A stretch of 35,866 bases of DNA from a virus (taxonomy: Duplodnaviria; Caudoviricetes): IMG/VR virus record IMGVR_UViG_3300043781_000015, positions 1-35,866 of that record, one strand, 5' to 3'. Shown here one piece after another: positions 3,687 to 35,866 of the stretch. The notes beneath the pieces were generated by a model. That model was not told the DNA's origin and did not search any database. It saw nothing but the letters and a program-made list of their open reading frames with translations. Positions within the stretch are counted from its first letter, which is position 1. The number at the start of each line of letters is the position of its first letter. Made by a program: the position numbers and the translations under genes.

Positions 3687-4769
3687 ATGGCAAATTTTAT
3701 GAAACGTAACGGAAAATGGCAGGCACGGGTTTCCTGGCGTGATGCTGACGGAAAACTGCATCAAAAATCCAAAGCTGGGTTTGCTACCAAAGCTCAGGCT
3801 AAACTTTACGCAACGGAGTTGGAGTCCGAACTGGGCAAAGGTGTGGATGTATCTGCTGATCCGGTGTTTGCGGACTACTTTGAGCAGTGGTACAAAACAT
3901 ACAGAGAGCCACACCTGGCTGAAAATTCTAAGAATCAGTACGCAGCGAACATTAAAATAGTTAAATTGTATTTTGAACAAATCAAGTTAAAATCAATAAA
4001 TCGCAGTTCTTATCAGCAATTCATTAATGACTTCGGAAAAAATCACGCCAAAGGGACTGTTAAACGTCTGCATACTCAGATTAAATCGTGTGTTAAATCT
4101 GCTTTAGCTGATGGGATCATTACTAAGGATTTTACTTATGGCATAAAAAGCAGCTACAATAGCAGCTTAACTCGCCACGTTGAATATCTGTCCATTGATG
4201 AGTTAAAACGACTAGCAAAAGCAGTGTCTGATGACCTTTCACCAGACAATATCCCTGCCTATATGATTCTGGTAGCAATTTATACCGGCGCTCGTTTTGG
4301 CGAAATTCTTGGTTTAACGTGGGATGACATCAATTTTAAAAATAAAACAATCAGGATCAATAAAACGTGGGACTATCACAACCATCAAGGTTTTCTTCCG
4401 ACTAAGACCCCACATTCAATTCGTACGATTCGTGCTAACCCAACGTTGCTAAACGAATTAAAGCAGCTCGACAATAACCACACTGGCAGTTTTTAAAATC
4501 GAAGGAGCGGATTACATGAATAGTCGGATCAACCGGGCACTCAAACGGTACTTAAAACAAGCCGGCATTAACAAACAAGGCTTTCGTTCCACTCTCTGCG
4601 CCATAGCCATGTGGCATATTTGCTTAGTCAAGGTGTGGACCTTTACGCAATTAGTAAACGGCTGGGCCATGCTAACATGTCGATCACGAGTAACGTCTAT
4701 GCTTATTTTATTGATGAATACAAACGTAAATCTGACAATTTGATTGAATCGAAATTAGACAAACTATAA
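3687..4769 (+). CDS. int: tyrosine integrase (frameshifts near 4490 and 4586)
   Basis: N-terminal arm-binding segment (WQARVSWRDADGK...GFATK); TGARFGEILGLTW; TKTPHSIRTI; third frame reads HSLRHSHVAYLLSQGVDLYAISKRLGHANMSITSNVYAY...DKL* ending at 4769. Confidence 0.93.
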
Positions 4770-4961
4770 AACCGTTGTACGTATGTTGTACAGCGGTTTT
4801 TAAAATGCCTATGTATCAATGGTTTAAGTTTATCAGCGACATTATGCACGAACATATTTATAGATTTTTATAAATAACTATAATCTAAAACCCTTGATTT
4901 AACGCCAAATGAAGAATTATAGAAACCTATAAAGTACAACGCTGATGTACTTTCGTTGTAC
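4770..4961. other. attP region with integrase arm-type repeats
   Basis: GTTGTAC at 4774, 4785 and 4955, GATGTAC at 4944, inverted GTACAAC at 4934, around an AT-rich core directly after int; phage genes on both sides. Confidence 0.72.
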
Positions 4962-4989
4962 AAAAAAACGGCCGTCATAATGACGACCG
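4962..4989 (-). terminator. intrinsic terminator closing the mini-array transcript
   Basis: Minus strand CGGTCGTCAT-T-ATGACGGCCG followed by TTTTTTT. Confidence 0.75.
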
Positions 4990-5137
4990 CAGCCCCACTT
5001 GCGGTGGGGAAAACTTGCTATAAAGCAATATCCCTAATATCAATATTGGGATCACCCCCATGTACGTGGGGAAAACTCTCTTTAAAATCCAAACATCATA
5101 TTGATATCGGGATCACACCCACATACGTGGGGAATAC
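4987..5137 (-). CRISPR. cas-less type I-E mini-CRISPR array (two full repeats, one degenerate terminal repeat, two spacers)
   Basis: Minus-strand repeats GTATTCCCCACGTATGTGGGTGTGATCC (5137-5110), GTTTTCCCCACGTACATGGGGGTGATCC (5076-5049), GTTTTCCCCACCGCAAGTGGGGCTGCGG (5014-4987); spacers of 33 and 34 bp; the 28+33=61 bp period and sequence match lactobacillus type I-E repeats. Confidence 0.88.
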
Positions 5138-5143
5138 GATTTA

Positions 5144-5172
5144 AGTATATATCAAAATAGCAACCTTTTCCA
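5144..5172 (-). promoter_or_regulatory. putative sigma70 promoter of the mini-array
   Basis: TGGAAA-17 bp-TATACT, with the -10 box 6 nt upstream of the first repeat. Confidence 0.5.
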
Positions 5173-5187
5173 GGCTGCTATTTTTTT
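5155..5187 (-). terminator. intrinsic (bidirectional) terminator after the island operon
   Basis: AAAATAGCAACC-TTTTCCA-GGCTGCTATTTT inverted repeat with A/T tails. Confidence 0.7.
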
Positions 5188-5602
5188 ATGCTTTGTAGTA
5201 GTCAAACTTTCCGCTTTCGCAGTTTTCCTTAACGGCTTGTAGCCGTTTTTCAAGTGCCGTCCAGATCTTGTCGGGGTCCTCTGCCATCTCTGGCATCTTC
5301 ATCAGATTGATTGCCCGGCATGTTTGGTAGTCGTGCCAATCGCTTTCGGGATCTTCCAAGTCCCAATCCATTACCCTTTCATAGTCCGGATCCTTGTGGT
5401 AGCCCTGCAGGAAGCCCATGACGTCATAGATGCCGAGCTTTGCGATTTTTTGTTCTGCTTGATTATAATCAAGCACATCTGATACAAGCCAATCAACGTC
5501 TTCAATCATTTGGTTGCGGAACTTTGTATTAATCGAACTTTTATGTTCGAGCAAAAGCTCCATGAGTTTCACATCGTTAAGCTGAAATTCCTTGTAATTC
5601 AT
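5186..5602 (-). CDS. hypothetical acidic protein, 138 aa (anti-defence candidate)
   Basis: Likely start ATG 5602 (MNYKEFQLNDVK) after AGGAAGAAGG; D/E-rich. Confidence 0.7.
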   Translation of the reverse strand: MNYKEFQLNDVKLMELLLEHKSSINTKFRNQMIEDVDWLVSDVLDYNQAEQKIAKLGIYDVMGFLQGYHKDPDYERVMDWDLEDPESDWHDYQTCRAINLMKMPEMAEDPDKIWTALEKRLQAVKENCESGKFDYYKA

Positions 5603-5618
5603 TTTGATTGCCTTCTTC

Positions 5619-5834
5619 CTAAAGCTTAGTAACTTCATCTGGGTTATCCCAGTCACAAGCATCACTTGCATCGATATCTGACTCGTTCCAGTCAGATTTA
5701 GGATACCAGGTAACCATGTACTCGTTGCCCTGCTCATCATGAGCCTGAGCTTCGAAATATGGCTCTTCGTGAGCCCCCGTGATGTAGGCATCCTGGTCCA
5801 AGATCAGCTTGATTCCGTTGTATGTCAGTTCCAT
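5619..5834 (-). CDS. highly acidic 71-aa protein (anti-CRISPR / DNA-mimic candidate)
   Basis: GGAGG RBS, ATG 5834; 18 D/E against 3 K and no R. Confidence 0.72.
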   Translation of the reverse strand: MELTYNGIKLILDQDAYITGAHEEPYFEAQAHDEQGNEYMVTWYPKSDWNESDIDASDACDWDNPDEVTKL

Positions 5835-5835
5835 T

Positions 5836-6051
5836 TTAAAAGCCTCCAATTTTTTCATCTATTGCCTGTTTGAGTTCTTTTAAGTCCTCCACATAGTCCA
5901 TGTGGTTGGCGTTGATATGCTCCTCAGCCTTGCTACCCGGTTTTGGGTTAACAAAGCTGAAAGCCGTCCGCCTTAGCTTTGCATAGCCGGTTCGGTGTGG
6001 GTTTTCTTTTTCCCACTTCCGACTTGCATTAGTCTGAGCCTTAGTTACCAT
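5836..6051 (-). CDS. small protein with basic N-terminus (candidate Aca-like regulator)
   Basis: MVTKAQTNASRKWEKENPHRTGYAKLRRTAFSFV...EDLKELKQAIDEK; resembles small Firmicutes phage 'AQxxAxxKW' proteins; has its own promoter. Confidence 0.72.
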   Translation of the reverse strand: MVTKAQTNASRKWEKENPHRTGYAKLRRTAFSFVNPKPGSKAEEHINANHMDYVEDLKELKQAIDEKIGGF

Positions 6052-6076
6052 TGCATCGCTCCCTTTCTATGCTTCT

Positions 6077-6105
6077 ATTATAACGCCCCGTTAGATAGAT
6101 TGCAA
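6077..6105 (-). promoter_or_regulatory. consensus promoter P2 with internal palindromic operator
   Basis: TTGCAA-17 bp-TATAAT; contains TAACG-GGG-CGTTA. Confidence 0.8.
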
Positions 6106-6521
6106 GGCCTTTTTAGCCAAATCAACGACAATCTTTTCGCAGTAGTCATCGTAGGCCTTGCTTTGCAGTTCACCGGTCTGAACGTCAACCCAAACCTTGA
6201 CGCCCAGTAATTCGCCTGCAAAGTTGTGGGAGATTTCTTCTCCCTGAAACTTGGAGTAGCTGATGTAACCACTCTTGTAGTAGCTGACTTCCATCAGGTC
6301 AGCCTTGACCAGGTTGAAGTACAAACGGTCCTTGCCGTACTTTGTCCAACGGCTGAATCCCTTGTCTTCAAGGGCTTTGATCGTCTTTTCGGACAATCCC
6401 TTAGCCATCTTCCAGGCCATTTTAAGTGCGCCGGCAATGTATTCAATTGCCTTGCCGCCAAACTTCTTAGCAGCGTTCTTTGCAATTTCCAAGCCCTGTT
6501 CATGATGTTTGCCTTAGTCAT
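6091..6521 (-). CDS. hypothetical phage protein, about 143 aa (1-nt frameshift near 6490)
   Basis: MTKANIMNRAW joins EIAKNAAKKFGGKAIEYIAGALKMAW...RWTKYGKDRLYFN when one base is restored; AAGGAAAGGAAG RBS. Confidence 0.72.
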
Positions 6522-10831: not shown

Positions 10832-11602
10832 TTAACTGTGTGGCCAGAACGTTACGTTGCGCCAAGCGGTCCAGGCGCCATTGTGCTTGTTGCGGATATA
10901 CAGGTTGTCGGATACTGTGTGCATGGTCTGAGTGATAATTCCGCCGGCATTAATGACTTTGAGCAAGCCAGTCTCACTATTTGGCTTGCCATTAACACTC
11001 GTTGAATTGACGCCATAGTATCCAGACGTTGTTAGACCATCGCACGTGCCAGAAGTAACTGCCGTAACCGCAAACGGGTCTTTTAATACGTCGTTAGGAT
11101 CATCAACCGTTAAATGCCAATGACCATCGCTTTTGTTGATATATGGCTTATAGCTCGTACCAGACATACCGGTTGCGCCAGTGGCACCCTGTTCGCCTTG
11201 CACGCCTTGTGGGCCTTGTGCACCTTGTACGCCTTGTTTACCTTGCGGACCTTGGACACCTTGTGCACCAGACATATCAGTGACCAGTGACGCCTTACCG
11301 CCAGTCCATACAAACAGCTTGGCATTGTCTGCGTCATTTACGGTTGAGTCGATAATTGCAAAGTCGCCTTCGCTCAAATCGTTTGGCCCGTTAGCGTTAA
11401 GCAGTGCTACGGTTGCGTAGGTCTTTTTAATACTAAAAGGCTTGCCAGCTGGCCCTTGAATACCTTGCGGCCCTTGTACGCCTTGTTTACCTTGCGGACC
11501 TTGGACACCTTGTGCTCCAGTAGCACCGGTATCCCCCTTATCGCCTTTATCACCTTTCGGCCCTTGAGCTACCACGCCCAAGTCAATGTCAGTTGTTGCC
11601 AA
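10832..11602 (-). CDS. collagen-like fibre protein with C-terminal knob domain
   Basis: Two Gly-X-Y tracts; C-terminal GLLKV...[20 protein letters not shown]. Confidence 0.85.
11223..11515. repeat. 44-bp exact direct repeat in collagen-coding tracts (11223-11266, 11472-11515)
   Basis: CCTTGTACGCCTTGTTTACCTTGCGGACCTTGGACACCTTGTGC occurs twice. Confidence 0.85.
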
Positions 11603-11617
11603 TTTCTCACCGCCTTT

Positions 11618-12055
11618 CTATGACCAGAATGTAATTTCACGCCAAGCTGTCCATGTTGAACCATCACGGCGGTTACGCACGTAGACATTGGCACCAGCAT
11701 CACCGTAGTATGTCTGTACAACCATACGGCCAGCAACTTTGACATCAAGCAAGCCCCAGTTACCATCTTTTGGCCCGTTCTTGCCTTGATAGGGTGAGAA
11801 CCGTATGTCATAGTGACCTTCAGATGTCAGATTGTTAAAGTCAGTTGACGTACTCGTGATTGTTCCTTTAAACACTGTAGCAGGTGGCCCTTGTGGACCC
11901 TGTGGACCTTGAACTCCCTGCTTACCCTGTGGGCCGGTATCGCCCTTATCACCCTTAGGCCCTTGAATTCCTTGTGGGCCGGTTGCTCCGGTATTGCCTT
12001 GTGGGCCTTGTGGTCCACGTGCTACCACTCCCAAGTCAATATCTTGTGTTGCCAC
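11618..12055 (-). CDS. short collagen-like fibre protein with C-terminal knob domain
   Basis: [20 protein letters not shown]...; C-terminal WGLLDV...[21 protein letters not shown]. Confidence 0.85.
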
Positions 12056-29190: not shown

Positions 29191-29263
29191 CGTATCCCGC
29201 AGGAATCGAACCTGCGACAATCCGGTTAACAGCCGGATGCTCTGCCAACTGAGCTAAGGATAC
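29191..29263 (-). tRNA. tRNA-Asn (GTT)
   Basis: GTATCCTTAGCTCAGTTGGCAGAGCATCCGGCTGTTAACCGGATTGTCGCAGGTTCGATTCCTGCGGGATACG forms a full cloverleaf; no encoded CCA. Confidence 0.92.
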
Positions 29264-34099: not shown

Positions 34100-34340
34100 T
34101 TAGTGACGGACTTAGTGTCGGATATGGTGACGGGACAAATCCGTTGTGACAGTAAGGATAAGACTACTTTTTCTGTCAAGTGACGGAACACGTGAAATAA
34201 AGTCTTTACTATATATATTTTTATCTTTTATATATATACTTTTCATCACTATATCCGTCACTAGAGAAAAAAGAGTATATAAATACTAATGCGCCAACAA
34301 GTAAAACGTTTAATTACATCCGTCACTACATCCGTCACTG
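34100..34340. other. putative replication origin with iterons
   Basis: AGTGACGGA-type repeats at 34102, 34114, 34126 and 34179; inverted TCCGTCACT at 34254, 34319 and 34331; AT-rich core; directly after the primase gene. Confidence 0.72.
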
Positions 34341-35866
34341 ATTTAAGAAATTGGTTCTTGAATCGGTAATAATTTTTAGGCCTTCATAATATCGACCGTG
34401 ATTTGTACGCTTGTACTTAAATTTAGCTTTCATCTCACTGCCGAATTTCTGCTTATTGAATTGATGTTCACCAGATTCGTCAGTCCAACGCTTGTAAACG
34501 TCATATAGCTCACTTGCTGGTGCCATATAGCCCTCGCCTCTCTCACACTTTTCAGAAATGAAGAACTCGATGACGTCCATTTCCTGACGATACTCGCCAC
34601 TGGCTTTTCTGATCGATTCTGGCGGTTCGAGCCCTTCTCTCTGCCACATCATGGCTCCCTGCACGATCCAGTTAAGGATCCCGGATGCTTCACGCTGCAG
34701 TTTGTACTTGAGATCCTTGTCGACCTTGTTTTTAGGAATCTGGACCAGGAACGGAATCAGCATGATACGACGCCAGATACCGTCGTCAGTGCCACGAATG
34801 ATCGGCTTTGTGGTTGGTAGCCATCCACAGCTTGAACTGTGGGGTAAACTCAAACTCGCTCGCATACAGATGCCGAGCGACCATCTTGTCGCCACCAGTC
34901 ATCTGCTTGACCAATCCTTCGTCCAGTCGTGAGCCTTCGTTAGCTTCGCTTGAGATGACCAGCCGTGCACCTTCCAGACGTGCGATATCTGAGTTGACTC
35001 CGCTTGAACGTTTGACCATGATCGACTCAACGTTCATGGTCTCTGCGTAGGAGCCTAAGATGTCGGCAATCGTGTTGATGAACACCGACTTCCCATTGCG
35101 GCCGTTACCATAAAGCAGGAACATGACCTGCTCTTTGGTCGACCCGGTGGCTGAGTAGCCGACTGCCTTCTGAATGTAGTGGATGACCTCTTCATCGTTG
35201 TTAAAAATCTGGTGCAGGAATTTGTCCCACTCTGGTGCGTCAATCGTGTCAGTGTACTCGGCTGCAGTCTGACGGCTGAACATCTTACTGCGGTCGTGGT
35301 CCTTTAAGAGACCCTGAGTTAAGGTCGACGTAACCCGACTCTGTGTTTAGCAGCATCAGGTCGGTGTCAAACTCGCTGTGCAGGACCGGGACATGGTGCT
35401 TAACTTCGTCGAGCATGGATTTCTTGGACCGGTTGCTCCGGCACTTGGCCTTGAACTTGGCCCACTTTTCCATCGCGTCGTCTGCGTCCATGCCAGGCCA
35501 GATGTTGAGCTTTTCACTGTCCATGTTTTTAACTACGCTGTCCGCACACTTTTCAACCATGCCTGACTGGTCAATCTGCCAGTATGAGCCGTTGTATAGG
35601 TACCACATCTTGTCAATGTAGGAGTACTTAAAATTGTCGCCGTACATATCGATAAACCGCAGTGCGTTGCCCATATCGTCCCACGTACGTGGTGGTTTCG
35701 GCTTGTCGCGCTCTTTGTTAAGGAAACTCATGTCGTAGTTGGCATTGAGCGGTTGATGCGGGTTGAACACGTTGCTGGTCTCGTTGATCGCCTTGTTAAG
35801 CAGTGCAATCCCGTACGTGGTCTTGCCATGCTTCTCATCGTACTTTTTGCGGTACAGCGACGACTG
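34335..35866 (-). CDS. P4/D5-family primase-helicase (5' truncated; frameshifts near 35300 and 34808)
   Basis: D5-N-like WDDMGNALRF...WYLYNGSYW; SF3 Walker A GNGRNGKS; VKQMTGGD; ATNHKPIIRGTDDGIWRR after removing single extra A bases. Confidence 0.9.

Follow-up and report, generated by a model that had tools for sequence, protein, structure and literature searches.

A cas-less phage CRISPR array with two guides that match two alleles of a predicted host creR-cas3 promoter

The genome of a temperate tailed phage contains a cas-less CRISPR array with two spacers, the seeds of which match two alleles of a predicted promoter in front of creR and cas3 in the type I-E system of its host group, Limosilactobacillus. 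To judge from its sequence, the array very probably redirects the host Cascade to shut down Cascade's own operon. In the proposed mechanism, the array would be transcribed, probably from the prophage too, and host Cas6e would cut the transcript into two guides of approximately 61 and 63 nt. Over the transcription start, an R-loop of approximately 15 nt would then be formed by Cascade, too short for the recruitment of Cas3. The R-loop would block RNA polymerase, so that the expression of creR, cas3 and Cascade would decrease. The additional guides would push the feedback loop of the host below its set point and compete with immune crRNAs, and with two guides the phage would be equipped for hosts with either of the two promoter alleles.

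The array and its phage

The window, by which we mean the whole stretch of DNA that was analysed, is one virus record of 35,866 nt with an estimated completeness of 86%. Its head, tail, lysis, repressor and integrase genes are those of a temperate tailed phage. The array is located between four small genes, which lie 3' of the lysin gene, and the attachment region with the integrase gene (Table 1). The minus-strand layout given in the original prediction, with a promoter, two repeats each followed by a spacer, a third repeat and a terminator, was reproduced, and both spacer sequences were as quoted there.

Table 1. Positions of the array features in the window.
Feature	Position	Strand	Remark
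Predicted sigma-70-type array promoter, TGGAAA-17-TATACT	5144..5172	minus	consensus match and -10 position in homologues
-35-like element TGGAAA	5172-5167	minus	followed by 17-nt spacing
-10 element TATACT	5149-5144	minus	followed by 6 nt, then R1
Hairpin at the end of the upstream gene	5149..5189	minus	z = -5.2; overlaps the promoter
Repeat 1 (R1), type I-E	5137-5110	minus	28 nt; would supply the 7-nt 5' handle of guide 1
Spacer 1 (S1)	5109-5077	minus	33 nt
Repeat 2 (R2), type I-E	5076-5049	minus	28 nt; full 6-bp stem
Spacer 2 (S2)	5048-5015	minus	34 nt
Repeat 3 (R3)	5014-4993	minus	ends after the hairpin; would supply only the 3' handle of guide 2
Intrinsic terminator	4990..4962	minus	stem 4990-4968 and T run

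The repeats of the array contain the predicted hairpins and handles for maturation. R1 and R2 differ from each other at four positions, and the stem of R1 has five base pairs instead of six because the bottom pair is lost. The third repeat was expected to keep only its hairpin; the hairpin is indeed retained, together with the 5' GTTTT, and its loop has one extra base. Both predicted guides fold on their own seed in the folding analysis. The terminator has a folding z of -5.6, and none of 200 shuffles folded equally well. The upstream gene ends only 48 nt before R1, which agrees with the expectation that there is no room for a normal adaptation leader. The hairpin at the end of that gene, the loop of which holds the -35 element of the array, is likely the terminator of the gene and would insulate the array. 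By consensus alone, the array promoter is not above chance (6 sites against 4.1 +/- 1.9 expected); the promoter is supported by the position of its -10 element, which is conserved in homologues.

No cas gene was found among the 52 ORFs scanned against PHROGs in this approximately 86% complete record, and tblastn of eight host Cas proteins against the window gave a best E of 0.23, in accordance with the absence of cas genes noted originally. The only Rfam match in the window is a tRNA at 29191-29263 (-), beside a DNA methyltransferase gene. The array recurs without any difference in a separate record (L001), which argues against an assembly artefact; there it belongs to a prophage whose border with host DNA is at approximately window position 4849. 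The junction (L001:3280-4540) coincides with the beginning of a host gene that resembles a membrane transporter, by eye an amino-acid permease, and that is divided into two ORFs in L001. The integrase frame of the window (3693-4766) stops after 267 residues, and a 91% identical relative has 359. The primase and tail-fibre genes also look split, 11602-12055 and 34335-35770 being among the affected spans. The shortened integrase frame and the two apparent splits represent either assembly errors or decay.

The four small genes between the lysin gene and the array (5186-6492, minus strand) had no match to a known anti-CRISPR protein in PHROGs, Pfam or NCBIfam, nor in PDB sequences (three of the four searched) or the Atlas (two of the four searched). 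One of them encodes a Phage_Gp111 N-terminal domain and has homologues beside several other cassettes. The four genes are a candidate anti-defence cluster.

Host type I-E loci and the promoter target

The host DNA that flanks the near-identical prophage in L001 is 95% identical to genome G037, 94% to G008 and 81% to G001 (L. mucosae 6A), and did not match G045 or G010. The gene cas8e is present in 11 of the 74 genomes of the genus, G008 and G037 among these. The locus of G008 is annotated with cas3, cas8e, cas11, cas7, cas5, cas6e, cas1 and cas2, and G037 also has a type I-E locus. The commonest array repeat of G008 and G037 differs from R1 by 2 nt and from R2 by 4 nt. The assignment of the phage repeats to lactobacillus type I-E is therefore confirmed: both are 28-nt repeats like those of Lactobacillaceae arrays located beside cas3-cas8e-cas11-cas7-cas5-cas6e.

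The spacers extracted from 13 host loci, two of which yielded none with the extraction pattern, start with C or T in 152 of 156 cases. Three of the 25 spacers of G008 match the window phage with 0-2 mismatches (positions 4079, 13763 and 21025), and all three matches are preceded by AA and then C or T, which defines an AA-Y PAM. The spacers of the other 10 loci tested did not match the window phage, and reversed controls gave 0 matches. Eight further spacer matches to related phage loci, with 2-4 mismatches, have AA directly upstream in one case. For type I-E in Ligilactobacillus salivarius, the PAM AAT has been tested, with a 29/32 numbering (PMC11288051).

The cassette of L. mucosae 6A (L015) differs from the phage array in its first spacer, and its second is identical to S2 at 31 of 34 positions. 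Comparison of S1, S2 and the L015 spacer gave a shared seed in which positions 1, 7 and 13 are free. Type I-E Cascade leaves every sixth base unpaired, and a 28-nt repeat supplies a 7-nt handle. The sixth-position rule is stated for I-F1 (bioRxiv 10.1101/2023.03.03.530964). The seed register and the AA-Y PAM were fixed before the target came to light.

When the genus was searched, the S2 region turned up in two cas loci, those of G008 and G037. Each genome contains its own two-repeat mini-array (creR) upstream of cas3, with a spacer identical to S2 at 30-31 of 33 positions, and S2 evidently descends from host creR. Just upstream of the host creR there is a promoter-like TTGAAT-16-TATAAT, followed by AAA and the S2 seed. 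S2 matches this promoter allele (allele 1; seen in G008, G037, L170, L195 and L203) at positions 1-6, 8-12 and 14-15 behind the PAM AA-C, with mismatches at positions 7 and 13. The target lies 3 nt 3' of the predicted -10 element of the creR-cas3 promoter, which as a consensus match is not above chance (2 against 2.1 expected; 1 against 2.0). The combination of PAM and S2 seed is found at a single place in each of G008 and G037 (reversed-pattern control 0), in both cases the creR-cas3 promoter, which makes two of the 74 genomes; it is absent from G001 and from the window phage. Base shuffles of the 450-nt region contained such a site in 2 of 200,000 cases for S2 and in 8 of 200,000 for S1. The near-full matches of S2 in the host creR and in its own array are preceded by a repeat and not by AA, and are therefore predicted to be spared from attack.

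A metagenome scan added four host loci, three with allele 1 and one (L205) with a second allele, which is accordingly known from one metagenome contig, or one of six host creR loci. The Cas3 of L205 is 96% identical, and its creR matches its own allele. The two alleles differ at positions 2, 8 and 15; S1 follows allele 2 at all three, and the creR of L205 at positions 2 and 8. Behind the PAM AA-T, the match of S1 to allele 2 comprises positions 2-6, 8-12 and 14-15, position 1 being mismatched, and S1 shares positions 1-6 and 8-12 with the creR spacer of L205. S1 fails on allele 1 and S2 on allele 2, each at position 2. A promoter of this type is present in only 2 of the 11 cas8e-bearing genomes of the genus; neither the cas3 promoter of L. 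fermentum DR9 nor the other cas3-upstream regions examined contain a seed site.

A 14-codon ORF behind a purine-rich stretch is located between the host creR and cas3 in six of six loci (L118 at approximately 1634-1678, L117, L170, L195, L203 and L205). It varies by one amino-acid change and one stop-to-stop change, the loci being too alike to show selection, and it is possibly a CreT-like element. At two other loci, L110 (in G017) and L032, a mini-array upstream of cas3 has a spacer that by eye matches a nearby AA-Y-flanked site; the logic is the same as here and the sequences are unrelated. A creR-like mini-array is also present at another Lactobacillaceae type I-E locus (L013, near 11752).

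Related cassettes on mobile elements

Related cassettes were found at 23 other loci in phages and relaxase elements. Thirteen are accompanied by a lysin and/or integrase homologue, five by a MobL relaxase and one only by a homologue of an upstream phage gene, and the context of four is unsettled. A phage-like replicon of L. mucosae A1 carries the cassette in the same place. As the loci are related, the counts that follow are of non-independent events. The distance from a -10-like hexamer to R1 is 5-8 nt in 19 of the 24 cassettes; the remaining five have the hexamer 21-24 nt before R1, two hexamer variants having been admitted after viewing. By pattern match, a hairpin and T run follow the last repeat in 23 of 24. 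Chance matches that lacked the repeat hairpins were dropped, 18 of 22 loci from the viral-contig scan and 38 of 54 from the metagenome scan; the other four of the 22 lie on the contigs of L147, L148, L149 and L152. L158 was excluded as ambiguous.

The 21 distinct mobile guides were compared with the better-fitting allele. All of them match at position 14, 17 at position 15 and 12 at position 16, and the number falls to 1-7 at positions 17-24; position 7 is matched by six guides and position 13 by two. The search pattern by which most guides were collected fixes much of positions 2-12, and conservation there is a product of the search; the free evidence consists of the covariation of positions 2, 8 and 15 and of positions 13-16. 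An A at position 2 is accompanied by G at position 8 in 11 of 11 guides, and a G at position 2 by A at position 8 in 8 of 10. All five distinct two-guide arrays (the window and L149, counted once, L148, L153, L173 and L207) hold one guide per allele. Five of the 21 guides have a poorer fit. Two of these, with a run of seven, nevertheless match allele 1 to position 18 except at position 2; of the other poorer guides, one has a run of 10 and one, present in G001 and G037, a run of four.

A single-guide cassette that is more distantly related, and that has a -10 element and a terminator of its own, occurs in G001 (L140) and G037 (L145, G037:C78:7848-7949). With G at positions 5 and 11, its guide is a poor fit to both known alleles.

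The MobL relaxase elements carry the same cassette together with unrelated, ordinary-looking spacers ahead of the guide. The number of these extra spacers is 0 in L015 (9937-10110), one each in L168 and L175 (near 3800-4100) and two in L160 (3983-4090). The first repeat of the arrays has a variant base that is absent from the inner repeats, a pattern more easily explained by recombination with a host array than by insertion by Cas1-Cas2. Neither a target nor a host-array source was found for the extra spacers, two of the four having been scanned in viral contigs.

Alternative readings and known systems

The array resembles Cracr, the viral crRNA-like regulatory anti-CRISPR RNAs described by Liu et al. 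(bioRxiv 10.1101/2024.10.29.618823). Their preprint reports 219 candidates and 30 arrays, 16 of them two-spacer type I-E arrays, with co-encoded guides aimed at different variants, and the type I-E array of a Salmonella prophage was validated, apart from its second guide, which could not be. Candidates were recognized by similarity to host CreR or CreA with at least nine PAM-proximal spacer matches. The phage array has all the sequence-testable features given in the preprint. It lies on a mobile element outside a CRISPR-cas locus, among phage genes and with no cas found; S2 has at least nine PAM-proximal matches to the creR of G008 and G037, and S1 to that of L205; the partial target in the predicted cas promoter is PAM-flanked, with AA-Y and the seed to position 15; and the two spacers correspond to two variants of one type, allele 2 being from one contig. 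As in the Salmonella CracrIE array, there are three repeats without cas genes, the third degenerate, and two spacers, each of which resembles host CreR, has a PAM-proximal partial match to a cas promoter and is directed at a different variant of the same type I-E system. In contrast to it, the host group is Limosilactobacillus, the spacers have the full length of 33-34 nt instead of 24 and 21, the target is upstream of creR and cas3 and not at casA, and the two targets differ as point alleles of a single promoter; the function was tested in Salmonella and is predicted here from the sequence. The main text of the preprint contains no mention of Lactobacill-, Limosilactobacillus or Lactobacillales, and its Table S2, which spans Bacillota, may list the family. 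Our literature searches found no paper on this element in lactobacilli, and the bioRxiv supplementary tables may list it.

CreR, the Cas-autorepressing RNA of hosts (bioRxiv 10.1101/2023.03.10.532045), is likewise a degenerate mini-array with a PAM-adjacent cas-promoter match of approximately 15 nt, and S2 is a near copy of such an element; unlike CreR, the array is phage-encoded, away from any cas locus, with a second guide and a terminator of its own. Copies of host mini-arrays on phages are also described by Shmakov et al. (bioRxiv 10.1101/2023.03.03.530964): the seed is conserved in them, the 3' portion has diverged, and one case has three repeats and two spacers. The phage cases considered from that work are I-B and I-F1, and prophage arrays are reported in hosts without a mini-array of their own, whereas the closest hosts here keep creR. 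Racr and the virus mini-arrays that target competitors (review PMC11656645; PMC6858448) are further cas-less viral CRISPR RNAs that need host Cas proteins. Racr has a solitary repeat and no functional spacer target, in contrast to the three repeats and two spacers with PAM-flanked seeds, directed at a host promoter, found here. The competitor-targeting arrays differ in that no near full-length match to another virus was found for S1 or S2 in the phage, plasmid and viral-contig collections searched.

The claim that the phage feeds crRNA-like RNAs to the type I-E Cascade of its host finds support in the sequence, and the three functions listed for them without ranking can now be separated. The RNAs might be pure decoys in the manner of Racr, which only soak up Cas6e and Cas7 or whole Cascade, with the spacer as a leftover of creR capture. 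A strong stand-alone unit with a terminator would suit that role, the promoter match of S2 could be inherited with the near copy of creR, and competition for Cas proteins is reported in the Cracr preprint. Nevertheless, pure decoys are improbable: S1 resembles host creR spacers at only 14-17 of 33 positions, yet it keeps the allele 2 seed and matches that allele one base further than the creR of L205 itself; several relatives with new 3' halves keep the match or extend it to 16 nt; and decoys need no pairing of one guide with each allele. A decoy role is possible as a side effect, and it leaves the match of seed and PAM unexplained. The attack on competing elements, with S1 and S2 as interference guides like those of an SPV-type mini-array, is the least probable of the alternatives, despite the normal spacer length and the ordinary-looking extra spacers of the relaxase elements. 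No full-length target was found: the best BLAST matches among 50,697 phage and 72,556 plasmid records cover only part of the spacers and belong to unrelated hosts, the viral-contig scans gave nothing beyond the cassette itself and short matches due to chance, and relatives keep the seed as their 3' halves drift. Two loci considered as spacer targets (L003 and L004) were rejected as 19-nt chance matches. A self-target in the phage was likewise rejected, the best ungapped matches being 21/33 and 21/34 with no site of PAM plus seed.

It is also highly improbable that the guides repress only creR, or the small gene behind it, or a promoter other than that of the cas operon. The start of cas3 lies approximately 290 nt behind the target, the A+T-rich DNA in between could hide a promoter, and the 14-codon ORF there is conserved; a weaker unseen cas3 promoter, if used, would mean that the guides silence only creR. 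Against this, neither another promoter-like site on the sense strand nor a terminator was found ahead of cas3, and silencing of creR alone would be expected to raise Cas levels and not to lower them. With regard to other promoters, the S1 PAM and seed occur at unrelated sites in 16 of the 74 genomes, none of which is among the 11 with cas8e, and no S1 or S2 site was found in the window phage or elsewhere in G008 and G037; one extra site for a broader seed pattern in G037 is inside an integrase-like ORF. Repression of the creR-cas3 promoter, with one spacer per allele, is therefore the function that is strongly supported. Its weak points are that the host promoter is predicted by consensus, that the stem of R1 is weakened and the guide seeds are self-folded, and that the guide of L145, within G037 itself, has no fitting target.

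We speculate on a wider reading, which is rather unlikely to be correct as a whole, in which the cassettes take part in a base-by-base contest over one promoter, combined with conjugative steering and a CreT-like safeguard. The host would have changed three seed bases of the promoter together with creR to escape mobile guides, and the phages would have answered by stacking one guide per allele. The cassette would also have passed to conjugative elements, which add ordinary spacers ahead of the silencing guide, so that one array dampens Cascade and steers the remainder. The silenced transcript may hold the 14-codon ORF as a CreT-like safeguard, in which case one guide would mute nuclease, Cascade and toxin.

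The mechanism of Cas repression is already known, and the value of the array is that of a clean natural experiment with two alleles and two guides. It offers a testable case of RNA-based anti-CRISPR in a culturable group of gut and food lactobacilli, with a natural set-up that consists of two alleles of the promoter, a guide that fits each of them, and a host array in which some spacers match the phage. The pairing of guides with alleles bears on the mechanism and on the reason for multiplexing. Where lactobacilli are edited with their endogenous type I-E systems, resident prophages or conjugative elements may reduce the activity of these systems.

The cassette has left a trace in another genome. 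G045, which lacks cas8e, contains a spacer (L121:1501-1530, G045:C31) that is identical to S2 at 30 of 30 positions (window 5018-5047) and to the creR of G008 at 29 of 30. The spacer is located in a type II-A array beside csn2 and cas1. By this identity, a second CRISPR system has evidently sampled the cassette or a close copy of it.
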